64,000 bases of DNA from an uncultured Bacteroidota bacterium (GTDB taxonomy: Bacteria; Bacteroidota; Ignavibacteria; Kryptoniales; JAKASW01), in the NCBI GenBank assembly GCA_963790995.1, contig CAWBQQ010000002.1:94547-158546 (forward strand), written 5' to 3'. Shown piece after piece: positions 7,999 through 64,000 of this stretch (the first letter of the stretch is position 1; each line of letters starts with the position of its first letter). The position numbers and the translations under genes are program-made. The notes under the pieces were generated by a model. That model worked only from the letters and a program-made list of their open reading frames with translations. It did no database searches and was not told where the DNA came from.

Positions 7999-8086
7999 TT
8001 AACCTCCGAAATATTTTCATTACAAAGTTATTAAACAGTTGCTTCCATTACAAGAAACTCATAAAGCAAACTTCATCTTCAATCTT

Positions 8087-9577
8087 TTAGCTGACTTTAC
8101 GCATTCGTGCCGCAAAAGATCCGTCCATATCGTGTCTGTGCGGGAAGATTTCAACGAAACCTTCGCGTCCCACTAATGCTTTGTTCACGAATAAATCTGC
8201 CGGCTCCACAACAAATCCGGGGTGATTGGCCAAAAAATTATGGACGACCTCCTGGTTCTCTTGTGCTTCGATCGTACAGGTGCTGTAAACAATTACGCCG
8301 TTCGGCTTCAAAAGATTTGACATGTTTTCAAGAAGCGCTGTTTGGATTTCGTTGAGGCTTCTAATGTCCTCAGGCTCGCGTTTCCATTTCGAGTCGGGCT
8401 TCTTCCTGATAGCTCCGAACCCCGTGCAGGGTGCATCAACCAATATCCTGTCAAAAAGGACCGGGTCGGAATAATTCGTGCCGTTCCCCACGACAACCTT
8501 AGCACGAGTGTACCCCAACCTGTCGAGAGCGTTCTGGATGAGACAAACACGATGCTCGTATTTTTCGACTGCCGTAATGTCCACATCCCCGCCGGTCAGC
8601 TCAAGGATATGAGTTGTTTTTCCGCCGGGGGCGGCACAGATATCCAATATTCTCTCCCCGCGCATCGGATCGAGAAGGATGGAGACTATTCCCGCGCCTT
8701 CGTCCTGGACCGTAAACTGCCCGGCTTTGAACGATTCAATGCCGCCTATCCTCGATAGACCTTCGACATAGAGGAAGTTTGGGATAAATTTGCCGCACGT
8801 GACCACTATACCATGATACCTGAATTGGGCAGCGAGTTCATCCGTCGGAATCCTGCCCGTATTCACACGCACCGAAAGCCGCGGGCGATCATTGAGTGAG
8901 ACAAGCAGCTGTTCCGTTTCAAAGATTCCGAACCTGTCGATAAACCTACGCACAAGCCACGCCGGAAAGGAATGAATGACGGAGAGAGCTTTGACTGCAT
9001 CCTCGCCTACGGCAGGAAATTCGATTAAATTGGCTTTCCGAATTACCGTCCTGAGAATCGCGTTGACAATATTCGCGGAAGCCTGGCCTCGCAGTTTCTT
9101 GACGAATTTGACAGCCTCGTTGACAGCAGCCGATTGCGGTATGCCTTGAAGGAACATTAGCTGGTACACCGCGAGTCGAATGGCATTTTTGATATTGATG
9201 TCAAGCTTGAAATAATCGCCTTTATAAAACTGCGTTATGACGTAATCAAGCTTGAGCTTCCAGCGAACAGTTCCGTTAACCAATTCGGTAATGAATGCTC
9301 TGTCTAACTTGTTCAACTCGGGATTCCTCAATTCAAAGTCTAGAATCTTGTCAAGGTAGGAATCTGTCCGGTCAATTCTGTTGAGGGCTTTGACAGCAAC
9401 TTCACGAGCGGTTTCGTACAATACGACGTCACCATCACTCCTTGAGTCGTTATTGTAGTCCTTAAATTTTGCCATCGCTGCATTCCCCTGATTTTCCTTC
9501 TTTTCATCTCTCGCCAGAGCACCTGCATACCCTGCGGCTAGTTCATGCTCCGGCAACATCTGTTCAACTTGACCCAA
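8087..9577 (-). CDS. rsmB: 16S rRNA (cytosine-C5)-methyltransferase RsmB/Sun (NusB-like N-domain plus SAM methyltransferase)
   Basis: The sequences ILDICAAPGGKTTHI, DRILVDAPCTGFGAIRKKPD and VYSTCT are the RsmB/NOL1/NOP2 motifs. The start is uncertain; an alternative ATG at 9475 gives MAKFKDY. Confidence 0.85.
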   Translation of the reverse strand: MGQVEQMLPEHELAAGYAGALARDEKKENQGNAAMAKFKDYNNDSRSDGDVVLYETAREVAVKALNRIDRTDSYLDKILDFELRNPELNKLDRAFITELVNGTVRWKLKLDYVITQFYKGDYFKLDINIKNAIRLAVYQLMFLQGIPQSAAVNEAVKFVKKLRGQASANIVNAILRTVIRKANLIEFPAVGEDAVKALSVIHSFPAWLVRRFIDRFGIFETEQLLVSLNDRPRLSVRVNTGRIPTDELAAQFRYHGIVVTCGKFIPNFLYVEGLSRIGGIESFKAGQFTVQDEGAGIVSILLDPMRGERILDICAAPGGKTTHILELTGGDVDITAVEKYEHRVCLIQNALDRLGYTRAKVVVGNGTNYSDPVLFDRILVDAPCTGFGAIRKKPDSKWKREPEDIRSLNEIQTALLENMSNLLKPNGVIVYSTCTIEAQENQEVVHNFLANHPGFVVEPADLFVNKALVGREGFVEIFPHRHDMDGSFAARMRKVS

Positions 9578-9919: not shown

Positions 9920-10359
9920 GTCTTTCTCCAATTTGTAAATTAATGTAAGCAAAATATGCTCGAGTTTCAAGCCGTGAAAGCATTCCTGATCGATTGCGGC
10001 TAATGCCATGATTTGATTTTCGTTTCATAATAAAAAAATATAAACCGCAAAGTGCCGCCTTGCAGCATCCCCCCATTCTATATATTATCGATGATGAGCG
10101 GGAAACGCCACGATGCGCAAAGATTATTATTATTGAAAGAATACTTGGCGAGTCTTTGCGGTCTTGGCGGTTAAGAAAACCCTTTTGGGGTATCGCAGAA
10201 AGTTGAAATTGGGACTCTACCCAATTCCGAAATGGCTCGCCCATCCGGTTATGAGCGCCGCAATTCTGCTGACGCGTAATGATCCGCGAGCTGTTGCCAT
10301 GGGCCGTCAAGGTTCATGGAGTGGCTCCGGCGCCGATCAACGGAGCCGCGATTACTTGC

Positions 10360-11622
10360 TTACGAAGGGTCCACAACCTGTTCCACCTTACGTGCAGTGC
10401 CTGCCACCAAATCCGATTCGCGCAGCCTCGACGCCATAAAAAGGCCCACCAGAACCAGCCCGGTCATAACCAGGAGCGAAGGCGTCATCGAACCTTTCGG
10501 ACCGACTCTGAATGCGTCCATGCCGAATATAAATGCAATGCCGGAAATCTGTCCCATGAGAAGGAGCATGCCGTTTGAAGTTCCCTCGGGTGCAGGTCTG
10601 CCGATCTCCGCCCCATATTGGAAGCCAATGGGTCCGCAGCTTAAGAGGAAGAATCCCAGCGCGAAGCACGCCGCGTACAAAAGACCGCTTGTGGCGGCGT
10701 ACGTAATTGCGAGCAGCCCGGGAATTGTGCCCGCAAGACTGATAACGATAAAAGGAACCCTCTTGCGGTACTTGTCCGACAAAGTCGGAAGTATTACGGC
10801 GCCGACAATTCCGCCGAGTATCATCAAACCTCCTGCCGTGCCGGCCTGCGTCGCGGTGAAGCCGCGGGGACTGATGATGTCTTCGATCCATGTCGTCACG
10901 CTGTTGAAAACACCGAGTCCGATGAAGAAGATCGACATTAGAAAGATGAAATTCCTATTATGGAGAAGCTGTTTCATCCCGTCGAACATCAGGGCACGCT
11001 CTTCCAATTCGGCAGCTCCCGGGGGCGTTGCCGGATGTTCCCGGGCGAATACAATGAATATGATTCCCGCGGCGAGTGCACCGATGCCGTAATACAACAG
11101 CATGTTGTCGAATCCGGCAGAGATCACCAGGGCAGGCGTTACAGCCAGACCAGCGAGTATGCCGAGGTACATTGCCAGTGAGCCGAGACCGGATGCCGTG
11201 GCACGCTCTTCGATCGGGAACCAGCGCGCCGCAACTTTGGTCAAGGCGTTCAGGATAAACGGCTGCCCGACGGCCGTGCCTATTTGGGCGACCATGACAA
11301 GAGTAAAGTTCGATGCTACCATGCCGCGCATTAGGCCGAACGCGCCTGTCAGCCCTGCGCCTATCCCGACGGCGACACGGAAACCGTACGTGTCTATCAC
11401 CCATGATGCGGGGATCGACACGACCAAATACGCAATCATGAAGCTCATCGACAGGAGACCGATGTCCAACTGCGAAACGTGGTAGTATGCGGCGGCGGAC
11501 TCGGTCACCGGTGCAAACGTAATCCAGACAAGCTGATTAAATGCCGCAACCAGCATGAAAACCACGAGTATAAGCCACCTGTACCCGTAAATCTTGTAAG
11601 CAGATTTTTCCATGTAATTCAT
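10360..11622 (-). CDS. MFS transporter
   Basis: This is a 420-aa ORF with about 12 predicted hydrophobic segments, and its composition is typical of the major facilitator superfamily. The substrate is unknown. Confidence 0.7.
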   Translation of the reverse strand: MNYMEKSAYKIYGYRWLILVVFMLVAAFNQLVWITFAPVTESAAAYYHVSQLDIGLLSMSFMIAYLVVSIPASWVIDTYGFRVAVGIGAGLTGAFGLMRGMVASNFTLVMVAQIGTAVGQPFILNALTKVAARWFPIEERATASGLGSLAMYLGILAGLAVTPALVISAGFDNMLLYYGIGALAAGIIFIVFAREHPATPPGAAELEERALMFDGMKQLLHNRNFIFLMSIFFIGLGVFNSVTTWIEDIISPRGFTATQAGTAGGLMILGGIVGAVILPTLSDKYRKRVPFIVISLAGTIPGLLAITYAATSGLLYAACFALGFFLLSCGPIGFQYGAEIGRPAPEGTSNGMLLLMGQISGIAFIFGMDAFRVGPKGSMTPSLLVMTGLVLVGLFMASRLRESDLVAGTARKVEQVVDPS

Positions 11623-11972
11623 ATCTCCTTAAATATTTATGCAGAGTTGATAACCAACTACCAGCGCGTTATTCGGGCCGCAAAGACTTCCATAACTGGC
11701 AGCCAAGCTTCATAGCAAAGACTCAGTACTTTTCAAACTCGAATCAGAATTTGTGGCGATATTAGGAAGTCCGTTTTCTTCAACCGAACTTACAGATATT
11801 GCGTTGATTTTAGTCAGTCTGTGGGTGATTTCCAAACGATTTCCATTGATACGACGCATTGCGGGGTGAGAATTATTCAGACAAAAGCTTCTTTCATATT
11901 GCCTGCCACTTTTACAATTTCTTTGACGCACCCGATTTTAGCAGTCGGATCCCGAGGCTAACTTGCATAAAC

Positions 11973-13649
11973 TTATTTTGTCTCCTCTGCGAGGAATTCA
12001 AATTCACCTTTTATCTCTTTGTTTGCTTCCTGAGCGCGAAGCTGTACTCTCCTGATCTTGCCGGAAATTGTTTTAGGCAAGTCGGTGACAAACTCAATTC
12101 TTCGAAGCCGCTTGAACGGCGCCACCCTTGCCCTGACGAAATCCAGAACTTGCTTTGCCGTCTCACTCGATGGCTCGAAGCCCGGCGCTAGCGTTACATA
12201 CGCCTTCGGGATGTATCCACGGATGGGATCGGGCGCAGGGATGACCGCCGCTTCGGCAACGGCCGGCGATTCAATCAGTACACTTTCAATCTCAAAAGGG
12301 CTGATGCGATAGTCCGAGCTCTTGAACAAATCGTCTGCTCTGCCCACAAACCAGAAGTACCCTTCCTGGTCGCACGTCGCGACGTCGCCGGTTCTGTAAT
12401 AACCTCCGGACATCACCGTTCTCGTTCTCGCTATGTCGTCGGCGTAATTGATCATCAACCCCATCGGACGCGAATCCAGTTTCATCACGATCTCTCCTTC
12501 ATCCGATTCAACACCGTCGGCATCGAGCAGCTCGATTCGATATCCTGGAGCAGGCCTTCCCATGGCGCCGATCTTTACGATCGAGCCCGGCATGTTCCCG
12601 ATTTGAAGAGTCGATTCCGTCTGACCGTAGCCGTCCCTTATCGTGATTCCCCAATCGGTTCTCACCTTCATGATAACTTCGGGGTTCAGCGGCTCACCTG
12701 CGCTAACAAGCTCGCGAAGCGATTCCGGTTTCTGCTTGAGATCTTCGAGAACCAGCATCCTCCACACGGTGGGAGGAGCGCAGAGCGTATTCACATTGTA
12801 ATTCTGCAGTATCTCAAGAAAGCTTTTCGGAGCGAACCTCTCATATTTATACACAAAGACCCCGGCGCCCGCATTCCATGGTGCGAAGAATGAGCTCCAG
12901 GCATGTTTTGCCCAGCCGGGCGAGCTGATATTCATATGAAGGTCTCCCTCGCACGCGCCTAGCCAGTACATTGTCGAAAGATGTCCTATCGGGTAAGAGC
13001 CGTTCGTATGTAGAGCCATCTTAGGTTGAGCCGTGGTGCCGGAAGTGAAATACAAGAAGAGCGTATCGGTGACTTTTGTCTGCACTTCAGGCTTATAAGT
13101 TACAAGCGCATTGTATGCGTCTGCGTAGGAAATCCAGTCGTCAACTTTGGGTCCGACGACAACCTTCACGAATTTGCCCTCGATTCCGTCGAACTTTGCG
13201 ACATTGTCCGGCGTCGCGATCGCTAATTTTACTCTTCCCCTTCGCATTCTATCCTGGATGTCGTTTTTCGTCAGAAGAAAGGATGACGGTATCAAAACCG
13301 CGCCCAGCTTTATCGCGGCAAGCATGACTTCCCATATCTCCGGCTGGTTATCGAGCATCAGCAATATCCTGCTTCCCCTGTTTACGCCGAGGCGCTTCAA
13401 GAAGTTGGCGACCCTGCTCGATCTCTCCGACATTTCCGCGAACGAATACTTCCATTCTGACCCTTTTTCATCCACTATCCAGAGCGCCGTATTATTATTG
13501 CCTTCTGCATAGTTATCAAAATAGTCAGTCGCCCAATTGAAGTCTTCTATGTCCGGCCATTTGAACCCGTAGTATGCCGATTCATAGTCGTCGCGGCGGG
13601 TTTGCAGGAATTCACGTGCCTTGAGAAATTTGTCAAGTTCAACTGTCAT
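11973..13649 (-). CDS. AMP-forming acyl-CoA synthetase (medium-chain/acetyl-CoA synthetase-like)
   Basis: This is a 558-aa ORF. The motifs FLYFTSGTTAQPK (AMP-binding motif I), GYGQTE, YRTGD and ISGKIRR are adenylate-forming enzyme motifs. Confidence 0.85.
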   Translation of the reverse strand: MTVELDKFLKAREFLQTRRDDYESAYYGFKWPDIEDFNWATDYFDNYAEGNNNTALWIVDEKGSEWKYSFAEMSERSSRVANFLKRLGVNRGSRILLMLDNQPEIWEVMLAAIKLGAVLIPSSFLLTKNDIQDRMRRGRVKLAIATPDNVAKFDGIEGKFVKVVVGPKVDDWISYADAYNALVTYKPEVQTKVTDTLFLYFTSGTTAQPKMALHTNGSYPIGHLSTMYWLGACEGDLHMNISSPGWAKHAWSSFFAPWNAGAGVFVYKYERFAPKSFLEILQNYNVNTLCAPPTVWRMLVLEDLKQKPESLRELVSAGEPLNPEVIMKVRTDWGITIRDGYGQTESTLQIGNMPGSIVKIGAMGRPAPGYRIELLDADGVESDEGEIVMKLDSRPMGLMINYADDIARTRTVMSGGYYRTGDVATCDQEGYFWFVGRADDLFKSSDYRISPFEIESVLIESPAVAEAAVIPAPDPIRGYIPKAYVTLAPGFEPSSETAKQVLDFVRARVAPFKRLRRIEFVTDLPKTISGKIRRVQLRAQEANKEIKGEFEFLAEETK

Positions 13650-15115: not shown

Positions 15116-16046
15116 ATGAGCCTTGATCAGACATTCTTCGATCCCGGCCTAGACGCAAAAGTACACCGGAGAGCTGCACCGCGCAATTGAGAAGGACGGC
15201 TCGTTCAACGTCCGCAAAACCGGCGTTGGGCTGAAGGACTTCCATTTCTACCAGTTCCTGATAAATATCACATGGTTCCAATTCTTCCTCGTGATCCTGG
15301 CGGGTTACATCCTCGTCAACGCACTATTTGCATCCCTGTACCTCCTTGCAGGAGTCCAGAATATACAGGGCGCAGATACCGGCACACCTCTGTCGGCATT
15401 CCTGAGCACATTCTTTCTTAGCGTTCACACTTTCACCACCGTTGGCTACGGGACAATCGCACCGAAGGACTTCTGGACGAATGTTATCGCGGCTTTCGAG
15501 GCTCTGACAGGTCTCATGGGACTTGCGATCGCAACCGGTCTGCTCTACGGCAGGTTCTCCCGGCCCACGGCGAAGATTGTCTTCAGCGAACGTGCCATTA
15601 TCGCTCCGTATCGCGAAAAGACCAGTCTTCAATTCCGCATAGCTAACCGCCGCACCAATACGCTGATGGAGATAGAGGCGAAGGTGCTAATCATGACAGT
15701 GACCGGTACCGGAGATAACCATAGGCGTGAGTATCATGTACTGAACCTGGAGCGTTCATCGGTATATTTTCTTCCGCTGACATGGACAGTCGTCCACCCA
15801 ATCGATGAACAGAGCCCGTTCTTTGGAAAGACGCTCCACGATCTCTCTGATTTGCAGGCTGAAGTCCTGATCTTAATAAAGGCTTTCGACGATACCTTCG
15901 GACAGGTTGTCCACTCCAGGTATTCTTACAGGTTCGACGAGATTCACTGGGGGGCTAAGTTCGTACCCGCGTTCAGTGTTACGAAAGATGGTGATATGGC
16001 TCTTGAGCTTGACAAGTTGAACGAAGTAGAGGAGGCGAAGGTCTAA
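15116..16046 (+). CDS. Inward-rectifier-type K+ channel (KirBac-like); the 5' end is in a different frame (apparent frameshift at A4 run 15157-15160)
   Basis: The ORF 15291-16046 has the TTVGYG selectivity filter and a Kir cytoplasmic domain. The homologous N-terminus (IEKDGSFNVRKTGVGLKDFHFYQFLINITWFQFF) continues upstream in the same frame only to a TAG at about 15150. An ATG at 15116, with the SD AAGGAG at 15102-15107, opens MSLDQTFFDPGLDAK in the -1 register. Confidence 0.75.
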
Positions 16047-54305: not shown

Positions 54306-54656
54306 GACGGTTCAACTGTCTTCTTCTTTTTCCTAAACTCTTTTTCGGGAAATCCGGTCGGAAGCTGTGTTTTACTCTGACGTTCCCGAGTGTGAGCGCA
54401 TTTGCGCCATGGCGTAAGGCGCCGCATCTATCGGGAACCCATGACGAGCGGGGGCAGTCCAAACGACCTCACCCTACCCTCTCCTTGGCAAGGAGAGGGA
54501 CACAGATCTTTTTCTCCATCCCAAGCTCCTGCTTGGGATGACCTCTGTTATGCGGGAAGTCAACTCTCGCACCGCGGAGAATCCAGACAGAGGTAAAAGC
54601 GGTCGTTAATCTGCGTTTCGCGAATCTGTGTGGTGTGTCAGCAGGGGCACATGTGA

Positions 54657-54820
54657 ACGTGCCGGTGTTTATCTGGTTCGGGCGCGACCCAACTGTATCT
54701 AACTTATTTTTTGTGTACCAGTGTTTCAATCCACGCGCCCGCGTGGGGCGCGACTCGTGTCTGCGTCCGCAAGGGTCGGATTGTCCGTGTTTCAATCCAC
54801 GCGCCCGCGTGGGGCGCGAC
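54657..54820 (-). CRISPR. Minimal type I-C CRISPR array: two intact 32-nt repeats, one degenerate terminal repeat, two 34-nt spacers
   Basis: The minus-strand repeat is GTCGCGCCCCACGCGGGCGCGTGGATTGAAAC, at 54789-54820 and 54723-54754. The spacers are at 54755-54788 and 54689-54722. The degenerate repeat at 54657-54688 retains only the GTCGCGCCC end. The repeat sequence and length fit the type I-C class, and the array lies downstream of cas2. Confidence 0.85.
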
Positions 54821-54959: not shown

Positions 54960-55250
54960 TTACACAATAATCGGCTCTTCTATATCCGCTAAACCAGATT
55001 TCCCATGATGCTCAACCCGCCGCTTCCAGTTTGAACCCAAGAAATAGAACCTTAGGCTATCACTCTTCACATCGTACATCGATAGCAATTGATCCTTGAG
55101 ACTCTCCCATTGTGCGGGCTCGACGTTGCATTCGAAAACAGAATTCTGAACTCGTATTCCATAATCGACACAAGTCTCGGATATCTTCCGAAGCCGCCTT
55201 ACTCCCGCAGCTGTTGTCGTCGAAACATCGTAACTCACAAGAACCATCAT
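54960..55250 (-). CDS. cas2: CRISPR-associated endoribonuclease Cas2
   Basis: The product MMVLVSYDVSTTTAAGVRRLRKISETCVDYGIRVQNSVFEC is a canonical Cas2 N-terminus. The ORF-track start at 55280 (MPIEQAEVSY) is created by a REP-like unit. Confidence 0.9.
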   Translation of the reverse strand: MMVLVSYDVSTTTAAGVRRLRKISETCVDYGIRVQNSVFECNVEPAQWESLKDQLLSMYDVKSDSLRFYFLGSNWKRRVEHHGKSGLADIEEPIIV

Positions 55251-55265
55251 ATAAGACACCTCCGC

Positions 55266-55338
55266 TTGTTCGATAGGCATTCTTGCCTTTCATTAATCTC
55301 TATAAGAGGGACATTCAAGAATGAATGTCCGACAACAA
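55266..55338. repeat. REP-like hairpin pair (one type 1 unit plus one inverted type 2 unit) in the cas1-cas2 gap
   Basis: The units are TTGTTCGATAGGCATTCTTGCCTTTCATT (55266-55294) and GGGACATTCAAGAATGAATGTCCGACAACAA (55308-55338, opposite orientation). Confidence 0.8.
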
Positions 55339-55351
55339 TAATTGTCACCTT

Positions 55352-56458
55352 TCATTTCATATAAAACGGCGGATATTCTTGAATATCTCCGCGGATGTAC
55401 CTTGCCATTAGCTGAGCTTGAATATGCGGCAAGAGCCCAATAGTCATCTTCTCGCCAAGAAAAGGGTGCGTGATCTCTTCCTGCTTTCGCTTCTGATAGG
55501 CAGTGAGCACTTTCTTCCGTGCCTCATCTGACATTCTCACTTCTCCCGATTCACGAATCTCAAAATCTTTCTTCGTGACCTGCTTCAGGTTAATCAGATT
55601 CAGCATAATACGATCTCCTAAATACGCTCGAAACTCCTCCATGATGTCAAGGGCAAGACTTGGTCTTCCGGATCTCAGCTGGTGAAGAAAGCCAACCTGA
55701 GGATCAAGCCCCGTCGTTTCAACTGCCGATCTAACATCATTCGCAAGAATCGCATATAGAAACGAAAGCAGCGCATTTGCGGGGTCGAGCGGCGGCCGCT
55801 TCGAGCGGGCAGTGAATTCAAATTCCTCAACGACTATTAAAGATGACAGCACTCCGAAATACATCGCGGCACACTCGCCTTCGTAGCCACGAAGCTCATC
55901 AAGAGTCTCTGCCTCTTGAATGTCAGGTAAACGACCGCCCATCGCGGCTGCAACGGATTCCACTGCTCCTGAGGATTCTTCGTCGGGTATCCTCCCTAGC
56001 TCTTCAATTGATTCTTCAGTTGGACAAACATTCCTGTTTGTCCCATTCTTGTCTGTCCCTAATTCCGGATGATTCCTCTGGTGACGGAGCAGAAGGTTTC
56101 TATAGTTTGCCACCTTCGCCGCAATAATGGGACGCGCAATTGATAACGAGCATGGTTCACTGTCCGCCGTTGCATACTGTGCCTTCCGAAGCAATACGTT
56201 TCCCTGCTGAGCACCAGAGACATGGGCGAGGAACTTTCCATTCTCCGACAGATAACTAATTCCGACATTATTCTCCGCACAGAACGCCATAAGAGCAGGT
56301 GAAAGAGCTTTGAAGCCGAAACAGACAATATTTTCAATCGAATGAACCGGCGCCTGAAATACTCTCTTGTTGTCTACTTCAACAACAAACGTTTCTCTTT
56401 CTTTGTGGACATAGGCATCATCAGAGGTAATGTAAAGATTGTTGAGATGTTTTTTCAT
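55352..56458 (-). CDS. cas1: CRISPR-associated endonuclease Cas1 (type I-C), with a REP-derived in-frame insertion
   Basis: The sequences MKKHLNNLYITSDDAYVHKERETFVV, RGYEGECAAMYFG, NALLSFLYAIL and GLDPQVGFLHQLRSGRPSLALDIMEEFR follow the Cas1 pattern. The ORF-track start at 56485 (MSVEQ) lies inside a REP unit. Confidence 0.9.
   Translation of the reverse strand: MKKHLNNLYITSDDAYVHKERETFVVEVDNKRVFQAPVHSIENIVCFGFKALSPALMAFCAENNVGISYLSENGKFLAHVSGAQQGNVLLRKAQYATADSEPCSLSIARPIIAAKVANYRNLLLRHQRNHPELGTDKNGTNRNVCPTEESIEELGRIPDEESSGAVESVAAAMGGRLPDIQEAETLDELRGYEGECAAMYFGVLSSLIVVEEFEFTARSKRPPLDPANALLSFLYAILANDVRSAVETTGLDPQVGFLHQLRSGRPSLALDIMEEFRAYLGDRIMLNLINLKQVTKKDFEIRESGEVRMSDEARKKVLTAYQKRKQEEITHPFLGEKMTIGLLPHIQAQLMARYIRGDIQEYPPFYMK
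56019..56058. repeat. REP-like hairpin unit plus a half unit inside the cas1 coding sequence
   Basis: The sequence is GTTGGACAAACATTCCTGTTTGTCC followed by CATTCTTGTCTGTCC. It encodes GTDKNGTNRNVCPT in the cas1 frame. Confidence 0.7.
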
Positions 56459-56470
56459 ATTTCTTTCAGA

Positions 56471-56560
56471 TTGTTCGACAGACATTCTTGTCTGTCATTG
56501 GCATTCCTGCCTGCCATCGGTACTCCTGCTCAAGTTCGACAGACATTCTTGTCTGTCATC
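56471..56560. repeat. REP-like hairpins (two full units and one partial) filling the cas4-cas1 gap
   Basis: The full units are TTGTTCGACAGACATTCTTGTCTGTCATT (56471-56499) and AAGTTCGACAGACATTCTTGTCTGTCATC (56532-56560, overlapping the cas4 stop). The partial unit is GGCATTCCTGCCTGCC. Confidence 0.85.
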
Positions 56561-57269
56561 AAGACAAATACAAATTCTTCAAATAGTTCTTAAGCTTTCT
56601 TTCATTCATAGCCTTCGGCATACACACCGGCTCCAGCGAACAATTCCGGCACTTTGCCGAATACTCTGCGGCCGGCGTTCGCTTGTTTGCTATCAACTCA
56701 CGAACTTGCGCAATGATCTCTTCCGTCTGATTACGCAGATCACTGTCAATCTCGACCCGCACACGCCGTCGGATCTTTCCATAGAAGAATGCACCATGGG
56801 TCACCTGAATATTCATCATTTCTCCCAGGCAGAGTGCTTGTGCACAAAGCTGTACTTTGTCGCTGATATCGTCCTTCGGCTCACCTGACTTAAACTCCAC
56901 CGGGACAATCAAGAATGATTGTCCGACATTTTTCTCATCTTGTGCTTGTTCGAAAGGCATTCGCTCTTGTTCGACAGACATTCTTGTCTGTCTAAAGAAT
57001 TCCACCACATCACATCTTCCTGAAATCCCAAGTCGAAACGAATGAACCTTTAGCCCTCGCACAGTCTTTATCGACCCGCGAGACTCATAAGTATCAGTAT
57101 CCACCTTCTCATGCATTATATCGCCCCGTACAGTAAACACATTTTCATGCCATACATCCTCGACGTGTATCAGGGCGCACTGCCGCGGACAATAGACATA
57201 ATGCTGCAACGCACTTATCTGAAAGAAATCGTCTTCAGTGTACGGCGTCGATGGACTTGATTCAATCAT
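56559..57269 (-). CDS. cas4: CRISPR-associated exonuclease Cas4 (type I-C) carrying an in-frame triple REP insertion
   Basis: The sequences ISALQHYVYCPRQCALIHVEDVWHEN, GRCDVVEF, PVEFKSGEPK, VQLCAQALCL and C-terminal CRNCSL..C form the RecB-nuclease/4Fe-4S pattern of Cas4. Confidence 0.9.
   Translation of the reverse strand: MIESSPSTPYTEDDFFQISALQHYVYCPRQCALIHVEDVWHENVFTVRGDIMHEKVDTDTYESRGSIKTVRGLKVHSFRLGISGRCDVVEFFRQTRMSVEQERMPFEQAQDEKNVGQSFLIVPVEFKSGEPKDDISDKVQLCAQALCLGEMMNIQVTHGAFFYGKIRRRVRVEIDSDLRNQTEEIIAQVRELIANKRTPAAEYSAKCRNCSLEPVCMPKAMNERKLKNYLKNLYLS
56902..56993. repeat. Three REP-like units inside the cas4 coding sequence
   Basis: The units are GGGACAATCAAGAATGATTGTCCGACATT (56902-56930, type 2), CTTGTTCGAAAGGCATTCGCTCTT (56945-56968, degenerate) and TTGTTCGACAGACATTCTTGTCTGTCT (56967-56993). 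Confidence 0.8.
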
Positions 57270-57292: not shown

Positions 57293-57517
57293 ATGGAAAG
57301 GGAAGATAAGATAAACTTTCGCGTTGAATTTGAACAGGAAGAGGACGGACGGTGGATCGCTGAAGTCGTCGATATACCGGGTGTACTTGCATACGGAAAG
57401 TCGCAAGAAGAAGCGATGTTGAAGGCGCAAGCGCTCGCCCTGCGTGTCCTTGCCGAGAGAATCGATATAGGCGAGGTTTCCGCGATGCCACTTACGATTT
57501 CCTTCCTCGCTGCATGA
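57293..57517 (+). CDS. hicB: HicB-family antitoxin-like protein (UPF0150)
   Basis: The 74-aa product contains FRVEFEQEEDGRWIAEVVDIPGVLAYGKSQEEAMLKAQALA, typical of the HicB N-domain. Its stop overlaps the hicA start by 4 nt. Confidence 0.7.
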   Translation: MEREDKINFRVEFEQEEDGRWIAEVVDIPGVLAYGKSQEEAMLKAQALALRVLAERIDIGEVSAMPLTISFLAA

Positions 57518-57729
57518 GGCAGTGGTCCTCTCAGAAAGCCCGCCGTGTGCTCGCCGCTCTGCTTCGCACTGGTTGGACGATCAAGCGCGAGACTGCAGGT
57601 TCCCACAAAATTCTCTCCCGTCCAGGTTGGACAGATTACGTTTTTAGTTTTCACGATGCAGAAGAAATTGGTCCGAAGATGCTTGCCCGAATCGCCAAAC
57701 ACACGGGCTTGAAGCCGGAAGATCTGTAA
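57514..57729 (+). CDS. hicA: HicA-family mRNA interferase toxin (YcfA-like)
   Basis: The 71-aa product contains KARRVLAALLRTGWTIKRETAGSHKIL...FHDAEEIGPKMLARIAKHTGLKPEDL, the HicA pattern with the catalytic GSH. Confidence 0.7.
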   Translation: MRQWSSQKARRVLAALLRTGWTIKRETAGSHKILSRPGWTDYVFSFHDAEEIGPKMLARIAKHTGLKPEDL

Positions 57730-57858: not shown

Positions 57859-57887
57859 CAGTTCGACGGGCATTTTTGCCTGTCATT
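57859..57887. repeat. REP-like hairpin immediately 3' of the RAYT-like gene
   Basis: The unit is CAGTTCGACGGGCATTTTTGCCTGTCATT. Confidence 0.75.
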
Positions 57888-57893
57888 AGATAA

Positions 57894-58346
57894 TTATTCT
57901 TCTTCATTCAAATACCATCCCACATACTTCTCCGGCTCTTCTGTCAGTTCTTTCTTCACCGGATTATTGTACATATAGTTTAGCTCATTCTTGAACTCGA
58001 CATCATTACGCACTATTCGATCATACGACTCATCCTGCCAGACTTGCCCTCCGGTTCCTCTGTGCAAATTGATCTTATGCGCCGAGACACCTTTCATTCC
58101 ATGCATAACGCGGCTGAGAGTTACGCTTTCATTCGGCTGAATGAGAAGGTGGGCATGATCCGGCATCACCATGGCGGCATAGCAATGATAGAAAGCTCCA
58201 TTCCCTTCCTTGATATGTTCTAAGACGATACGTTGTTCCTCTTCGTCAAAAAATATTCCTCTTGCAGCATGGAGCGTAACAAAATAAACGGATCCTTCGA
58301 GAGTCCAATGCGGCAGATGCCGCCGTGTAATTCTCAATTCAACCAT
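57894..58346 (-). CDS. REP-associated tyrosine transposase-like protein (RAYT; IS200/IS605-type HUH Y1 transposase fold)
   Basis: This is a 150-aa ORF. It has the N-terminus RRHLPHWTLEGSVYFVT, the HUH motif in MVMPDHAHLLIQP, and the Tyr region VWQDESYDRIVRNDVEFKNELNYMYNNPVKKEL, as in RAYT/TnpA-REP proteins. Confidence 0.75.
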   Translation of the reverse strand: MVELRITRRHLPHWTLEGSVYFVTLHAARGIFFDEEEQRIVLEHIKEGNGAFYHCYAAMVMPDHAHLLIQPNESVTLSRVMHGMKGVSAHKINLHRGTGGQVWQDESYDRIVRNDVEFKNELNYMYNNPVKKELTEEPEKYVGWYLNEEE

Positions 58347-58358
58347 AATCTTTCAATG

Positions 58359-58577
58359 TTGTTCGACCGACATTCTTGTCGGTCATTCACATTCCTGCAT
58401 CCTGCTCGACAGGCATTCCTGCGTGTCATTCAAGCAATAAGGGGACACTCAAGAATGAGTGTCCGACAACAAATGAATGTCTGACAAGTGAGTGTCCGAC
58501 AGTGATTCAATTCGACAAACAATCGTGTCTTGTTCGACAAACGCGCTAGCGTTCGACAGACATTCTTGTCTGTCAGT
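58359..58577. repeat. Dense cluster of about 8 REP-like units (both orientations, full and partial) between the RAYT-like gene and cas7
   Basis: Full and near-full units are at 58359-58387 (GACCGAC/GTCGGTC stem), 58402-58430, 58441-58472 (type 2, GGACACTC/GAGTGTCC) and 58549-58577 (consensus unit). Half units are at 58473-58502, and degenerate units at 58508-58546. Confidence 0.85.
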
Positions 58578-58578
58578 T

Positions 58579-59424
58579 CTACAATTTCTCTTCTATCGAA
58601 ACGCCATTCGGAAGTTTGTCTCTTTCAATAGAAACTTCATAATCATTCCACGCACGCGGGAGCACAACCTCCTTTTTCTTTTCAACCTTCACTCGCTCGA
58701 AGAGTTCTCCTGCTCTTGCATTGCCAAGATGGCTTTCGTGTTTGAATACGATGAGCTTTCTTGGATTCATTTCTCCACGCGCCGCAGAGCGATCATGCTC
58801 AAAAGCATTCACTAATGCTTCCCACAACAAACTCAAATCGTCTTCGGAGAAACCAGTCTTTGCCGCATCAACTGCCGAGACAAATCCGTGCATCCTGTAA
58901 AGACCATATGGGACAGTAGATTTCCTGCCTATGGTTGATGCAAATTCCCTCTTTTCTTGCTTTTTCGCTTCCTCTTCAGTCGCAACCGCTTGGCGCGTAA
59001 TAGAGTGCTCAGCTTGATAAACGCGGTCTTCAGAACGAGAAAATGTAAACTGTACAGGACCACGAACAGTACCTGCATTGTTCTCGCCTGTACTTAATAC
59101 AGCACCGAATGTCCGGATATCCCAGTAGCTTTTGCACAGATCAACCTGACGATCGTGTGGGGTCTTTCCCTTTGCTTTTTCTATGATATTATTCAAGATG
59201 TTTCCCTGACGAATGAAGATTTCAGGTCCATCTTCATTCCCCTGTGATTTCACTTCAACATAGTTCCGCACTTTGCGTTTGATGCAGACATCAGTCACCA
59301 ATCCCTCCTGATTCTCTGCATCGACGCGCGGAAGGTTGTCCTGATCAGGATCACCATTGGGATTTCCGTCCTTCACATCGAATAGGAATACAAAATCATA
59401 ACGGTTTTTAATTGTGGTTGCCAT
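58579..59424 (-). CDS. cas7: Type I-C Cas7 (Csd2)
   Basis: The product MATTIKNRYDFVFLFDVKDGNPNGDPDQDNLPRVDAENQEGLVTDVCIKRKVRNY is the canonical Csd2 N-terminus. GAGGAG lies upstream of the ATG at 59424. The ORF-track start at 59547 overlaps cas8c. Confidence 0.9.
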   Translation of the reverse strand: MATTIKNRYDFVFLFDVKDGNPNGDPDQDNLPRVDAENQEGLVTDVCIKRKVRNYVEVKSQGNEDGPEIFIRQGNILNNIIEKAKGKTPHDRQVDLCKSYWDIRTFGAVLSTGENNAGTVRGPVQFTFSRSEDRVYQAEHSITRQAVATEEEAKKQEKREFASTIGRKSTVPYGLYRMHGFVSAVDAAKTGFSEDDLSLLWEALVNAFEHDRSAARGEMNPRKLIVFKHESHLGNARAGELFERVKVEKKKEVVLPRAWNDYEVSIERDKLPNGVSIEEKL

Positions 59425-59428
59425 GGTA

Positions 59429-61210
59429 TTACTCCTCTTTATTACTTGATTTAGTTGAAAAATCTTTTTGCCGTTGGTGATAATACCCGATCGCAAAACT
59501 TGCCTGGTCTTCGAGTGAAAATACAGTCGGGAAGCGAGTGCCTTCAACTTTCGACATCAGTTCCTGCAATTTCTTGTCAAGATTTATTGCAAGCCCTGGC
59601 TTTTCTCCCTGAATCTTCGACAAGTGATGCTGAGTCAGCTTCATCAATCTTCCAAATGCAGTTGACGGCATTGTGGAGGCGAATGAAAAGAATCGTTCGC
59701 GGATACCTGCATTTAGATTGCCACCCGAAGCATGATATTGAATTGATTCGAGGACGGCAAAAATCTTTCCGCAGGTATATGCCGTATTTTCACCTGTTCC
59801 ATCCTGTTCAGACATAAGTTTACTCCTTTCGATTGGATTGTTTTTTCGTTTTAGATATAAGTTCAGAAGAGCAATGCGTTCAGCCGTCGCATTTCCCTGT
59901 GCTGCTCGAATTCTATTCAAGACAGCACTCAACAACCAGAGCGGCGGTGGTTGTCCCGTGACGGCACATTTCCAAAGCACCGCGCCAATTCTCCCGTATT
60001 GAACATCATTCGTGCTTTTGCTTTTCGCAGATTTAACCAATTCCCAGAAACGTGGATATTGTTTCACAAGTTTTTCGTGGTCTGGATCATACCGCTCAAT
60101 TTCGATGTCCCTAAACCACTTCGCCAAATTCGTCTGAAGATCTTTGAGACTTGTCACTATCCAATCTCGCACAGCAATTCGGGCCGCTGTCCCACTAAGC
60201 GTTATTGCGTAGAATGTGTCTCGCTCGATTTTAGTCGCAGATGTCTTGTGACCATCGTAAACAGAGTCGAACATTGCACGAACGGCGTCTTCGGTAGGGT
60301 TGTCGAGAATATCAAGAAGAGATGCCTCGGTGGATTTCCGAAGCCAGAAGACTACAGCGGTATCATCTGAAATATTCCTACGGTTCTTATAGATAAATAT
60401 CTCTTTGCCTTTATCATTAAGTTTTGAGGTACCGTTAGAAAGAAGCCAATTTAAAGCATCCACATAGGCACGCGCACATCTTGCGCAAACAGAAGAATTC
60501 TCATTTCCTCTTAAGCCATAGGATTCTGTTGCATTGAAGTTGTATGAGATGAGCGCGCAACCGGATGTTTGTCCGGCAGGCACGCGCTTGATCATCCCAT
60601 GTGGAAAATCGACAACGGGGAAAGACGACAACCCGCAAATCGAGCATTTGTCAAAACGACTGCTTTTCAATCTTACTTCTGACTCTTCTTCGAATCTACC
60701 AATTATAGCTTCGTAGATTGGATTTTGCTCATGGATTCGTTTTGCACCATTAGTTAAAAGAAACCCGATGTTCCCACTTCTTTCTTTTTCCGTGACCTCG
60801 CTTCCAAAAGCATGCAACGCTTTTTCAACACCGTTCTTTCTATTGGACTCATAAAATGAGAGAATAGGAGACAACCCCTTTACGTCTCTGTATTCATTTA
60901 GCTTATCGCGAAATAACTTATGTTTGAATTCAACTTGTTGCTTTGACTTTTCTCGTTTTTTCTTGTCCTTCTCTTTTTCATCGAAGAATCCCAGCACCTC
61001 TTCAGGTTTATCCACAAGAAGGCGAGCTTTCCCCTTTTTTGCAGTGATTCTCTCTGCCAACGTTTGCTGTTTATCATGCGCAATAAATTTCTTAAAGTTT
61101 CCTTTTTGATCGATTACACAATCGATGGACACTGGGACGTAATCGAGAGCATCGTGGGATAATTTTCCTTTCGGAAGTCTCCCTGAAAGTTCTACTAGTT
61201 CTTGAATCAT
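59429..61210 (-). CDS. cas8c: Type I-C large subunit Cas8c (Csd1)
   Basis: This is a 593-aa ORF positioned between cas5 and cas7 with 4-nt overlap coupling to cas5. Its size and N-terminus (MIQELVELSGRLPKG...) fit Csd1. Confidence 0.8.
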   Translation of the reverse strand: MIQELVELSGRLPKGKLSHDALDYVPVSIDCVIDQKGNFKKFIAHDKQQTLAERITAKKGKARLLVDKPEEVLGFFDEKEKDKKKREKSKQQVEFKHKLFRDKLNEYRDVKGLSPILSFYESNRKNGVEKALHAFGSEVTEKERSGNIGFLLTNGAKRIHEQNPIYEAIIGRFEEESEVRLKSSRFDKCSICGLSSFPVVDFPHGMIKRVPAGQTSGCALISYNFNATESYGLRGNENSSVCARCARAYVDALNWLLSNGTSKLNDKGKEIFIYKNRRNISDDTAVVFWLRKSTEASLLDILDNPTEDAVRAMFDSVYDGHKTSATKIERDTFYAITLSGTAARIAVRDWIVTSLKDLQTNLAKWFRDIEIERYDPDHEKLVKQYPRFWELVKSAKSKSTNDVQYGRIGAVLWKCAVTGQPPPLWLLSAVLNRIRAAQGNATAERIALLNLYLKRKNNPIERSKLMSEQDGTGENTAYTCGKIFAVLESIQYHASGGNLNAGIRERFFSFASTMPSTAFGRLMKLTQHHLSKIQGEKPGLAINLDKKLQELMSKVEGTRFPTVFSLEDQASFAIGYYHQRQKDFSTKSSNKEE

Positions 61211-61923
61211 GGCACTTCCTCCTCCGAAGACTCCTCCGCAAGATTGAATTCATGAATAAGTTGTCTAGGATACTCTGCAATTTCCTTGCGCGGATGTGAG
61301 CTTGAAAGTATTTGTTCGCCGTAGTCTTTGCTGCAATCCAACACCCCTTGCTTCACTGCAACATCGTAGAAAAACTTCGGCGTTGGAACGCCCTTCTCAT
61401 CGTACCACATATCAAGGAACATACTGCCAACAGGAATGTCTTCCGTAATAGATTTGTCGTTTTCATCAGGCAGAGAGAACTCTGCGGCAAATTCTCTTGT
61501 CCCAAGATATGGTCTGCGCCAACATTGACCTTTCCGCGCGCGACGATTAAACATTTCCATGTATTTCCTGGTAGGGTTTTTCACGGGTGAAGTCGCCTCG
61601 TGGACGGCCGCCTCGATGATATAAGCAACATCTTTCAGGATGATGCTATTGCGTTGTGCACGATCTTCTTCAACAATGATTGGCATCTTGCCCTGCTTCT
61701 TATTGATCTCATTTCTCTTTACAGAATAAAATTTCACAGGCTTGAGTACGAGGATGCGTTGCATATGCCACGCGAACTCGGGTTTCCAGAGAACACTATC
61801 CAGAATGCCACGCGCTGCCGATGGAGTCATGCAAGGATATGTCATGCGCTCAACTTTCAGATCGGGACGCGTAAAGCACGCAAACTCTCCCCACACTTTA
61901 AGTCTTACAGTATTGTCGTACAT
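61207..61923 (-). CDS. cas5: Type I-C Cas5 (Cas5d, pre-crRNA endoribonuclease)
   Basis: The sequence RLKVWGEFACFTRPDLKVERMTYPCMTPSAARGILDSVLWKPEF is the Cas5d signature. Confidence 0.9.
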   Translation of the reverse strand: MYDNTVRLKVWGEFACFTRPDLKVERMTYPCMTPSAARGILDSVLWKPEFAWHMQRILVLKPVKFYSVKRNEINKKQGKMPIIVEEDRAQRNSIILKDVAYIIEAAVHEATSPVKNPTRKYMEMFNRRARKGQCWRRPYLGTREFAAEFSLPDENDKSITEDIPVGSMFLDMWYDEKGVPTPKFFYDVAVKQGVLDCSKDYGEQILSSSHPRKEIAEYPRQLIHEFNLAEESSEEEVP

Positions 61924-61950: not shown

Positions 61951-61980
61951 CCAGTCGGTCAGACATTCTTGTCTGACCAG
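61951..61980. repeat. REP-like hairpin in the cas3-cas5 gap
   Basis: The unit is CCAGTCGGTCAGACATTCTTGTCTGACCAG, with an 8-bp stem (GGTCAGAC/GTCTGACC) and an ATTCTT loop. Confidence 0.8.
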
Positions 61981-61991
61981 ATACAACTCTT

Positions 61992-63606
61992 CTAAAAGAC
62001 TGTCTCAACGTCTTCAGGCGCAATGCCAAGCTTTTGGTCATATTTGCCATGCCAAACTCTCAGAACATCTTTGATGTTTTCGATCTGTTTCTCGTTATTC
62101 CTCAGAAAATTCCGATATACCTGCACGCTGAATTGCTGAATTCTCCGATACTGTTCACGAGTGACAAACCCGCGGAAGATTAGCGACTCAGTGACTTCGT
62201 TCAGCAATGCTTTGCTCTCCTCGGAATAATCGGGGATGAATAAAGGTACAGTTGGACTTTCAATAATCTTATATTGCTCGCTGACGGTCTTGAAATTGAA
62301 ATCCTTCCGCTCCGCGGTGATATTGTATTTGTCAGCATCGACCAGCAATGCGACTCGTTTGTAATAGCCATGAAATGAGTCAATGTGATAAAGGAAATCC
62401 AGATCGTCCTTGATCAAGACTTCTGTCAAGCCTGCACAGGCCTCGTAAGTCCTATCTGGGAATCTCTGTTTCTCTAATTTGAAGATGACAACCTTGCCTT
62501 TCGCTTCGCCGGGATCACCGTTTCGGTTACATCTTCCAGCAGATTGGATCAACGCATCGAGAGGTGCCATGGCCCGATAAACGATTGGAAAATCTAAATC
62601 AACACCAGCTTCCACTAATTGTGTCGATACCACAGATATTCGCGTTTTATCCTTAAGATCTCGAACAATACATGAAATGATCTTCTTTCGATGATGAGGA
62701 CACATAGCTGTGGACAAATGATAATGTTCGTGGTATCCTTTGAAACTCGATATCCTTCCAAACAGCTCCATGGCAACAGATTTTGTATTGGCAATAACCA
62801 GAAAAGATTTTTTCTCTCTGGAAAGTTTCTCTTCCACAATGTCCATGGCACTCGGCTCGAGTTTGTTCAGCAATTTATAGTCCACACGCCGAGTGGAATC
62901 AAAATATATCTTCGAGTTTCTGATCAGCGGTCGGATTCTTTCGATCCCATCGAAGCCTTCACGCTTTTCAAATGCTGGCAATGTAGCCGTGCAGAACAAG
63001 AAACTGGTATTGGCAAGTGTATTGATGTTCTTCAGCATTATGACCGTGGGCTCCGCAATGTGTTTCGGCAAGGTCTGAATCTCGTCGAAGATTACTACGG
63101 ACTCGGAGATGTTATGATTTTTCCGACATTTGGACGATCTGTTGCTAAACAAAGATTCGAAGAACTGAACCGAAGTCGTTACAATGATCGGCGCATCCCA
63201 ATTTTCGCAAGCGAGGCGCTTTGCAAACGCGACGCTTTTGTCGAATTCTTCCTTGGCATATTGTTCATCATCGTCTATTATTCCAGAATGATGTTCCAGT
63301 ACAATGTTTTCACCAAAGATGTCTTTCAAAATCGATGCGGTTTGGTCAATGATATTGATATAGGGAAGAACAATGATGATCCGTTTCAAATGATTGTGCT
63401 TAGCATGGCGCAACGCCCAATACATTGACGTTAGAGTTTTTCCCAGTCCGGTCGGCAACTGAAGAGAGAAGAAACCATGCACTTCGTTTGCAGATCCCGT
63501 CACTTCAATTCTTGCTTTTGTTCGAAGTTCATTTATTATACCATCGGTTGGAAGTTGCTTGAATACTTCTTCGAGTTTGTCAAGCAAGCGTTCACATAAG
63601 CGGTCT
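61992..63606 (-). pseudogene. cas3: cas3 (helicase part only); 5' HD-nuclease region missing at the IS3 junction
   Basis: The helicase motifs are present: LQLPTGLGKTLTS (I), VIFDEIQTLP (II), FCTATLP (III) and QSAGRCNR (VI). Only about 45 residues precede motif I. The frame stays open (QDRLCER-LLDKLEE) right up to the IS end at 63607. Confidence 0.8.
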
Positions 63607-64000
63607 TGACCTGCCCCCCAAAAAGTGATCCAAAATAGACTTAGTAAAAAGGTATATTATGGATCAAAGGAGAAACGACAATGGGAAAGCCGCGACACAC
63701 GGTAGAAACAATTGTAGCAAAGCTGCGAGAAGCAGAAGTCATGATGGCAAAAGGCCAAACGCTGGCTGAGGTAGTCCGACAACTGGGGATCAGCGATGCA
63801 ACATATTACAAGTGGAGGAAGGAATACGGTGGACTTCAGGTGGATCAAGCAAAGCGGTACAAGGAGCTCGAGCAGGAGAACCAGCGTCTCCGGAAGGTGG
63901 TAGCAGATCTGACAATAGATAACTCAATACTGAAGGAAGCCGCACGGGGAAACTACTGAGCCCGGTGAAGAAACGCCGGGCGGTGGAAGAAGTTATGGAG
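63607..64000 (+). mobile_element. IS3-family insertion sequence, second copy (partial, continues beyond the window), inverted relative to copy 1
   Basis: The element starts TGACCTGCCCCCCAAAAAGTGATCC, identical to the 25328 end of copy 1. Its orfA differs from copy 1 by one residue (A to V). Confidence 0.9.
63681..63959 (+). CDS. IS3-family transposase OrfA (copy 2)
   Basis: This is a 92-aa ORF with 91 of 92 residues identical to the 24976-25254 product. orfB begins at GTG 63965 and runs off the window. Confidence 0.9.
   Translation: MGKPRHTVETIVAKLREAEVMMAKGQTLAEVVRQLGISDATYYKWRKEYGGLQVDQAKRYKELEQENQRLRKVVADLTIDNSILKEAARGNY

Follow-up and report, generated by a model that had tools for sequence, protein, structure and literature searches.

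A RAYT-type transposase gene and its hairpin repeats within a type I-C CRISPR-Cas operon of an uncultured Bacteroidota bacterium

What is a transposase gene doing in the middle of a CRISPR-Cas operon? The question is raised by a 64,000-nt stretch of an uncultured Bacteroidota bacterium (GenBank assembly GCA_963790995.1, contig CAWBQQ010000002.1, positions 94,547 to 158,546; hereafter, the window), the final 9 kb of which hold a minus-strand type I-C cas operon, with a Pfam or NCBIfam match for all seven genes. A first-pass annotation had described a gene between cas7 and cas4 as a REP-associated tyrosine transposase (RAYT) which, with the repetitive extragenic palindrome (REP) hairpins that border it, makes up a REPtron. 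That interpretation survived profile, cognate-repeat and related-locus checks. On balance, we think it probable that the element is a REPtron that has long resided in the operon and is passed on together with the I-C adaptation module, that has seeded its hairpins locally, that marks module-exchange breakpoints and that the CRISPR system can do without.

The identity of the protein is established by several profile and structure comparisons. Its translation includes the segments MPDHAHLLIQ, VWQDESYDRIVRN and LNYMYNNPVKK, and it is encoded in the same direction as the cas genes, as originally described. The NCBIfam model NF047646 (REP_Tyr_transpos) scores it at 89.1 bits (cut-off 80), the model NF033573 (transpos_IS200) at 26.2 bits, under the cut-off of 55, and Pfam Y1_Tnp matches with E = 3.5e-9. 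The sole sequence match in the PDB is Escherichia coli TnpAREP (4er8), and in the alignment H64/H66, Y124 and N128 correspond to H59/H61, Y115 and N119 of TnpAREP, whose active-site roles are taken from PMC3479197; the position of TnpAREP H123 is K132 here. The HUH motif is therefore H64-A65-H66 and the catalytic tyrosine is Y124, within NYMYNNP; N128 corresponds to the metal-ligand Asn of helix alphaD. All four residues (H64, H66, Y124 and N128) are invariant across an alignment of 50 homologues. The proposed tyrosine region was correct in so far as YMYNNP holds Y124. The tyrosine of the ESYDR motif, also considered as a nucleophile, was rejected, as it is Phe in L032, L034 and other relatives and the 4er8 alignment indicates Y124. 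An AlphaFold2 model (pLDDT 91.3) has 4er8_A as its best Foldseek match (E = 5e-8, TM 0.67/0.61, root-mean-square deviation 3.9 Å), and the domain-swapped dimers of IS200/IS608 fit it worse (8-13 Å). Sequence and model together place the protein in the RAYT class of HUH/Y1 transposases. The window contains one RAYT copy; on the contig of the close relative L004, a second Y1_Tnp gene lies ~10 kb upstream.

Is the association with cas genes private to this genome? Relatives were mostly gathered from RAYT homologues, with four contexts obtained from Cas1; the sample is small and partly RAYT-first. Within it, this RAYT clade is found inside I-C loci or next to them in about a dozen distinct lineages and in three arrangements. 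The order cas7-RAYT-cas4 (arrangement i) is found in the window, L004, L005/6, L009, L016, L017-20, L021/22/24, L030 and L031; cas4-RAYT-cas1 (arrangement ii) in L010, L032/33, L034 and L059/60; and in L035-38 (arrangement iii) the RAYT lies upstream of cas3 behind a TPR gene. The L035 (386-847) and L017 (4394-4831) contigs overlap at 99.85% identity across 3.3 kb, indicating two RAYT paralogs (75% DNA identity) at one locus, one upstream of cas3 behind the TPR gene and the other between cas7 and cas4. No cas context accompanies the RAYTs of L007/8 and P0008 or any relative at or below 60% identity; in L007, the ispD-RAYT-TPR context of the L035/L017 locus recurs without cas genes. The presence of the gene at the cas7-cas4 and cas4-cas1 positions of related I-C loci, which the first-pass annotation had proposed as a check, indicates a conserved association rather than a private insertion. 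In this sample, linkage of the RAYT to cas genes is non-random and conserved over diverged loci.

The pattern of inheritance points to the adaptation genes. The cas-linked RAYTs, together with that of L007, form one clade in a neighbour-joining tree (bootstrap 188/200). Cas1 and Cas4 trees split the loci as the RAYT tree does, into an arrangement-i clade, an arrangement-ii clade and L021 outside both, which argues that the RAYT is inherited with the adaptation module. In comparisons with L005 and L009, RAYT, Cas4, Cas1 and Cas2 are 75-86% identical, whereas Cas7, Cas8c, Cas5 and Cas3 are 31-57% identical, and co-inheritance with the adaptation module extends to about 42% Cas1 identity (L021). 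The ratio of nonsynonymous to synonymous substitution rates (dN/dS) of the RAYT, 0.09-0.14, resembles the ratios of the cas genes, with dS between orthologues of 0.4 to above 1. The gene is intact and under purifying selection. RAYT-bearing relative loci have arrays of 11-32 repeats.

The hairpins reported on both sides of the gene, a 3' unit and a 5' block, were recovered by repeat scans and by folding. A REP unit comprises an 8-bp stem and a 4-nt loop, GACAGACA-TTCT-TGTCTGTC and compensated variants, with a short tag before the stem. A-type units carry a GTTC tag on the plus strand and B-type units a GTCG tag on the minus strand, and together they form REPIN-like inverted pairs. Cognate units of the TTCGACAGACATTCTTGTCTGTCA type lie on both sides of the RAYT. 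The 5' block contains intact A-type units on the plus strand (58357-58387, 58400-58430 and 58547-58577), an intact B-type unit on the minus strand (58443-58471) and four or five partial units, including those at 58474-58545 (repeat families D1-D4 and I1-I3). Predicted folding energies are -49.3 kcal/mol for the block (z -5.4) and -6.8 kcal/mol for the 3' unit (z -4.0), and z ranges from -2.6 to -5.7 for single units. The 24-nt unit pattern, allowing ≤2 mismatches, has 8 matches in the window, where shuffled sequences predict 0.00, and a stem-aware scan finds 11 REP copies.

Several observations tie these hairpins to this transposase. The same hairpin family borders RAYT relatives of 50-89% identity in >20 loci (L004-L038, L059), and it is absent from L055, L057 and L061, three closely related I-C loci without this RAYT. 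The flanking hairpins are therefore the cognate REPs of the window RAYT, as had been proposed, and they are found only where the RAYT is. Stems differ between loci by paired changes (GACAGGCA/TGCCTGTC, GACAAACA/TGTTTGTC, GACATTCA/TGAATGTC, GACACACA/TGTGTGTC and others); these illustrate stem variation and are not an independent covariation test, because the scan demanded pairing. Among relatives, the outgroup and the arrangement-ii loci have the classical GTAG tag, and the subgroup of the window has GTTC, GTCG or GTGC. The change from GTAG, the ancestral form, to GTTC places TTC, the usual I-C protospacer adjacent motif, right before the stem (e.g., 56469-56501), which may be coincidence.

Searches for other origins or roles of the hairpins gave little. 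Kinship between the REP and the CRISPR repeat (32 nt, GTCGCGCCCCACGCGGGCGCGTGGATTGAAAC, with spacers of 33-37 nt) was rejected on inspection, as stems and loops differ. An Rfam scan of the 52-64 kb region (E ≤ 1) returned weak CRISPR-repeat matches only and none for the hairpins. The hairpins lack T-tracts, and a role as intrinsic terminators is unsupported because promoter and terminator counts equal the shuffled expectation (5 terminator-like sites, 4.9 expected). In viral contigs the exact 24-mer was not found and a degenerate 20-mer core occurs in 16, none of which carries RAYT or cas genes, so there is no phage link. Similarly, none of the 248 spacers of 13 arrays, compared with all loci, matches REP or RAYT sequence, giving no sign of hairpin-derived spacers. 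Strand bias was also considered on the basis of GC skew and replication direction, but in a 64-kb window of a metagenome-assembled genome (MAG) such an inference is too weak to use.

The hairpins are confined to the cas locus. All REP units of the window fall between 55269 and 61977, with none in the remaining 55 kb, and in six loci 34 of 34 hairpins lie within cas spans, and the 87 kb of flanks hold none (p about 1e-14). Genome-wide REP dispersal was thus not seen in the sequence covered (the 55 kb of the window and the 87 kb of flanks). REPtrons without a dispersed REP family are known (PMC3733652), so missing dispersal is not decisive for the RAYT gene itself. Hairpins occupy the cas7-RAYT, RAYT-cas4, cas4-cas1 (56474-56558) and cas1-cas2 (55269-55330) gaps, and one degenerate copy lies in the cas3-cas5 gap. 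The module initially drawn, a RAYT with flanking hairpins, is accordingly real but too narrow, as hairpins also occur in other cas gaps and in cas1 and cas4. Unit counts differ among relatives, with 3 in L005, all at the RAYT, and at least 11 in the window, and in other loci further REP units are found ahead of cas5 and in the cas8c-cas7 gap. The RAYT-bearing Bacteroidota locus L059 has three tandemly spaced REPs upstream of cas3 (641-837) and three beside an ISL3 transposase past the array (15889-15955), so REPs do lie outside the cas genes in some genomes.

Some copies are within coding sequence. A hairpin pair lies in frame in cas4 (56904-56993; hairpins at 56904, minus, and 56973, plus), adding ~28 aa at 56900-56995 in a loop between DVVEF and PVEFK, and one unit in frame in cas1 (hairpin at 56023-56059, insertion 56018-56062) adds GTDKNGTNRNVCPTEE... 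in the inter-domain linker. In protein alignments, relatives without in-frame copies have correspondingly shorter Cas1 and Cas4, and L004 and L005 hold shorter versions at the same Cas1 insertion site. The peptides GTDKN..NVCPT and MSVEQ recur from in-frame REPs. Because the first ATG of the longest cas1 and cas2 open reading frames (ORFs) lies inside a hairpin, the true starts are probably the next Met (for cas1, M10 of the 377-aa ORF). REPs inside ORFs have been described before (PMC3733652). In the non-cas relative L012, a REP unit (10300-10330) lies inside the RAYT ORF itself, adding AGTDKNVCPTG.

The edges of the RAYT and its hairpins coincide with changes in homology. The window and L004 share 90.5% DNA identity from cas3 to the final base of the RAYT and 76% from cas4 on, the higher identity stopping at the 3' REP unit. 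Homology to L005 and L009, in turn, starts at the hairpin just upstream of the RAYT. Both RAYT/REP edges are therefore breakpoints of module exchange. The hairpin clusters may themselves cause this exchange. In the window, no REP lies downstream of cas2 that would bound a mobile adaptation cassette.

What occupies the same border where this RAYT is missing? The four contexts found with Cas1 queries differ. P0133 led to L059, in which a RAYT of this clade is present, and P0149 to L061, a compact canonical I-C locus with no RAYT. P0113 led to L057, where an unrelated Y1_Tnp gene (8161-8778, 205 aa, 28% identical to the window RAYT) fills the cas7-cas4 slot beside the same hicBA cassette as in the window. 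It scores 61.8 bits on the RAYT model, below cut-off, and has its own hairpins (GGGAGAAGGAAAyCTTCTyCC at about 8634 and 8781). P0117 led to L055, also without a RAYT. L055 shares its chromosomal site with L005 at 86-90% DNA identity, with a cas7-cas4 gap of 36 nt versus 693 nt, and loss is the simpler reading because the RAYT follows the adaptation-module tree. The 36-nt spacer of L055 (9342-9377) contains a single REP-like hairpin, GAACAATCAAGAGTGATTGTTC, which could be a deletion scar or the original target. The arrays of L055 and L061 have 38 and 27 repeats, respectively, and the RAYT appears to be optional for the CRISPR system. Arrangement-ii loci have a Bro-N domain gene in the cas7-cas4 interval (L032, 6462-7301; L060, 7812-8651). 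The cas7-cas4 border of I-C loci thus gathers accessory genes: RAYT, another Y1 gene, hicBA and Bro-N.

The interval in the window is itself complex (Table 1). The RAYT is in the cas7-cas4 interval, as the first-pass annotation stated, although intact cas4 is not adjacent to it. From cas7, the order is hairpin block, RAYT, hairpin unit, a 5' remnant of cas4 and then hicBA on the opposite strand, followed by intact cas4. A similar cas4 remnant occurs in L016, and the hicBA cassette is shared with L016 and L057 and not found in L004, L005 or L009. The window cas4 was rebuilt around the hicBA insertion.

Table 1. Features of the type I-C locus in the window (positions within the 64,000-nt stretch)
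Feature	Position	Strand	Evidence or remark
cas3	61992-63587	-	Pfam/NCBIfam
Degenerate REP-like hairpin GTCAGACATTCTTGTCTGAC, cas3-cas5 gap	61958-61977	+	
cas5	61207-61923	-	Pfam/NCBIfam
cas8c (Csd1)	59429-61210	-	Pfam/NCBIfam
cas7 (Csd2)	58579-59424	-	Pfam Cas_Cas7 E = 1e-97; 281-aa product annotated on identical contig L001
5' REP block, cas7 stop to RAYT start	58347-58578	both orientations	232 nt
RAYT gene, 150 aa	57894-58346	-	NF047646, Pfam Y1_Tnp
3' REP unit immediately past RAYT stop codon	57857-57887	+	Repeat scan, folding
cas4 5' remnant, ~130 nt, ~43 codons	57719-57847	-	tblastn; 53% identical to cas4 aa 10-51
hicA	57514-57729	+ (antisense to cas operon)	Pfam HicA_toxin E = 1.9e-10
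hicB	57293-57517	+ (antisense to cas operon)	HicB-like_2 precomputed match
Intact cas4, 236 aa	56559-57269	-	TIGR00372, 127 bits
Two A-type REP units and a partial unit, cas4-cas1 gap	56469-56560	+	Exact matches at 56474, 56535
cas1 (I-C)	55352-56458	-	TIGR03640 cas1_DVULG 453 bits, in two stretches
REP pair, A-type (+) and B-type (-), cas1-cas2 gap	55266-55334	both	Repeat scans
cas2	54960-55280	-	Pfam CRISPR_Cas2 E = 9e-24
CRISPR array, minimal I-C: 2 repeats, one 34-nt spacer	54723-54820	-	

The operon as a whole bears signs of decay. Cas3 of the window begins at the equivalent of residue 184 of L004 Cas3, with the first ~183 aa (the HD nuclease region) gone, and it is abutted by orfA of an IS3-family transposase (63681-63959, plus strand, Pfam HTH_Tnp_1), the insertion sequence (IS) extending past the end of the window. 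The array holds one spacer, versus 32 repeats in L004; a putative degenerate third repeat lies at about 54655-54690. The cas ORFs other than cas3 are all intact, and CRISPR interference is probably disabled in the source genome. In L004, cas8c (7208-8990) and cas1 (11292-12384) are each represented by two ORFs, which may be real frameshifts or assembly indel errors. The nearest named relatives of the window Cas1 and RAYT proteins are from MAGs of Candidatus Kryptoniota/Kryptonia, Ignavibacteriota and Bacteroidota.

How might a resident REPtron of this kind work? The RAYT sits at the border of the effector and adaptation genes, is inherited with cas4-cas1-cas2 and would be transcribed by read-through from the cas promoter; RAYT expression via read-through transcripts has been described (PMC3733652). 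The enzyme would bind the 8-bp/4-nt hairpin and its 5' tetranucleotide tag on single-stranded DNA and, by analogy with E. coli TnpAREP, may cut and rejoin it. Acting mainly in cis, it would deposit new hairpin copies within a few kb, filling the cas intergenic gaps and occasionally placing copies in frame within loops at the surface of Cas1 and Cas4. The hairpin clusters flanking the RAYT could then serve as junctions for exchange of effector and adaptation modules between loci. The CRISPR operon would supply the element with expression and with a ride in horizontal transfer. A return benefit to the operon, such as effects of the hairpins on mRNA structure, is conceivable, as is a direct role of the RAYT in adaptation.

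So, is the RAYT a resident, or something else? A recent and incidental IS200-like insertion, with a Y1 gene between same-strand hairpin ends making up about 720 bp between cas7 and cas4, would account for an architecture and size that resemble IS200, for the clean presence/absence difference between L005 and L055 that is limited to the intergenic gap, and for residence in a locus that is decaying anyway (cas3 cut by an IS3-family element, a 2-repeat array). However, the protein falls below the cut-off of the IS200 profile hidden Markov model and above that of the RAYT model, the 64 kb hold no second copy, orthologues in this position have diverged to the dS values given above, the RAYT tree agrees with those of Cas1 and Cas4, and the same slot is filled in loci whose effector genes share only about 30% identity. 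This explanation is largely refuted, and we regard it as very improbable indeed. A different possibility is that the hairpins are the useful component and the RAYT a mere maintainer, RNA stem-loops setting the levels of effector versus adaptation transcripts. REPs in E. coli operons are involved in mRNA 3'-end protection and attenuation. Hairpins occur in most gaps from cas3-cas5 to cas1-cas2, the 232-nt block lies exactly at the effector/adaptation border, units are present ahead of cas5 and in the cas8c-cas7 gap of other loci, and possible REP effects on mRNA and RAYT expression have been discussed (PMC3733652). Yet hairpin positions and numbers vary widely among close relatives, canonical I-C loci such as L061 function with overlapping genes and no hairpins, and neither T-tracts nor an excess of terminator-like sites was found. 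We consider this quite unlikely, although a regulatory role of the hairpins is compatible with a long-resident REPtron.

Alternatively, the RAYT may have been recruited as an accessory of I-C adaptation, processing single-stranded or hairpin DNA and so feeding or regulating prespacer capture by Cas4-Cas1-Cas2, or moving the adaptation module between effector modules. This would fit co-inheritance with the adaptation module down to the level of L021, a dN/dS of about 0.1, and a gene that is inside the operon, always on the cas strand and always adjoining cas4 (upstream or downstream). It would also fit the unrelated Y1 gene in the same slot of L057, the long arrays (11-32 repeats) of RAYT-bearing loci, and module-exchange breakpoints exactly at the RAYT/REP edges. 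Against it, L055 and L061 retain their 38- and 27-repeat arrays without a RAYT, the gene is neither fused to nor overlapping cas4 or cas1, with hairpins filling the gaps instead, and hairpin invasion of the cas1 and cas4 coding sequences looks parasitic. Moreover, no spacer matches REP or RAYT, no REP downstream of cas2 bounds a mobile adaptation cassette, and a RAYT-CRISPR link was not found in the literature searched. Recruitment seems to us unlikely. Taken further, the RAYT lineage could be a CRISPR-associated HUH nuclease that works with Cas4-Cas1-Cas2 on single-stranded or hairpin DNA, or that excises and re-inserts a RAYT-cas4-cas1-cas2 cassette via the flanking hairpins, a proposal we hold to be decidedly doubtful. 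If true, cassette excision would explain how adaptation modules swap between unrelated I-C effector modules at RAYT/REP borders, and either version would give a RAYT its first host-level function and define a novel class of CRISPR accessory enzyme. The resident REPtron that we prefer faces points of its own. Persistence, purifying selection and constant placement on the cas strand beside cas4 are also expected of a recruited accessory gene, and the unrelated Y1 gene in the same slot of L057 suggests that the slot attracts or rewards this enzyme class. Spread of hairpins that is local only rests on 64 kb of the source genome and the flanks of its relatives, three units of L059 fall outside the cas locus, and the trees are neighbour-joining trees of 12 to 25 sequences.

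RAYTs occur widely as single-copy genes with a housekeeping-like mode of evolution, and to our knowledge no benefit to the host has been established for them since their first description. The lineage described here tracks a CRISPR adaptation module instead of the chromosome. It offers a testable setting in which to ask whether a RAYT is parasite, regulator or partner: a seven-gene operon that occurs naturally in RAYT-bearing and RAYT-less forms, and a hairpin substrate that is defined. The hairpin clusters mark effector/adaptation recombination points, and REP units are evidently tolerable as in-frame insertions in Cas1 and Cas4, which is relevant to the annotation and engineering of both proteins. 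REPtrons, low-copy REP families and REPs in ORFs are already known (PMC3733652, PMC5581495). What appears to be new is a RAYT clade that tracks the CRISPR adaptation module; no report of a RAYT/COG1943-CRISPR association was found in the literature searched, which included the text of the "CRISPR-linked genes" survey and is incomplete in coverage.

Where does this leave the element among known systems? Casposons, Tn7-like CRISPR-associated transposons and IS605 TnpB as the ancestor of Cas12 likewise link a transposition enzyme physically and evolutionarily to CRISPR-Cas. Unlike in those partnerships, the system here is an ordinary I-C type, which in relatives is complete and includes Cas3 and the adaptation genes, there is no hint of RNA-guided transposition or of mobility mediated by Cas1, and the enzyme is of the HUH/Y1 class, for which a CRISPR link was not found in the literature searched. 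With IS200/IS605 elements (Y1 TnpA, sub-terminal hairpins), it shares the Pfam Y1_Tnp superfamily, a ~720-bp unit with hairpins on both sides and presence/absence polymorphism among sibling loci. It differs in its 26-bit score against a cut-off of 55, in a best structural match to monomeric TnpAREP rather than to IS200/IS608 dimers, in showing no sign of multiple identical copies, and in a position retained over deep divergence. The host operon follows canonical type I-C (Dvulg) in its order, cas3-cas5-cas8c-cas7-cas4-cas1-cas2 and then the array, and in its 32-nt repeat. However, a RAYT, hicBA and a cas4 remnant are added at its cas7-cas4 border, its gaps are filled with hairpins where genes overlap or abut in L061, its cas3 has lost the HD domain to an IS, and its array has one spacer.

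The closest parallels are with REPtrons and other RAYT-REP(IN) systems, such as E. coli TnpAREP-YafM with its BIMEs and the RAYT-REPINs of Pseudomonas. Here, too, an HUH/Y1 enzyme of ~150 aa with the active-site residues and predicted fold of TnpAREP has on either side short perfect hairpins that bear a conserved 5' tetranucleotide, and units occur in both orientations as REPIN-like pairs; the 64 kb covered hold one RAYT copy, and the L035/L017 locus two. The GTAG tag of the outgroup and arrangement-ii relatives is that of the GTAG REP superfamily (PMC3733652, PMC3479197), and slow, gene-like evolution under purifying selection is as reported for RAYTs (PMC5581495). Unlike other REPtrons, this one resides within a CRISPR-Cas operon, and its inheritance follows a mobile adaptation module and not the chromosome backbone. 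Its hairpins are low in number and stay nearby, with 0 in the 87 kb of flanks, rather than dispersed in tens to hundreds, the GTAG tag has been replaced by GTTC, GTCG or GTGC in the subgroup of the window, and hairpin copies have settled in frame within cas1 and cas4.

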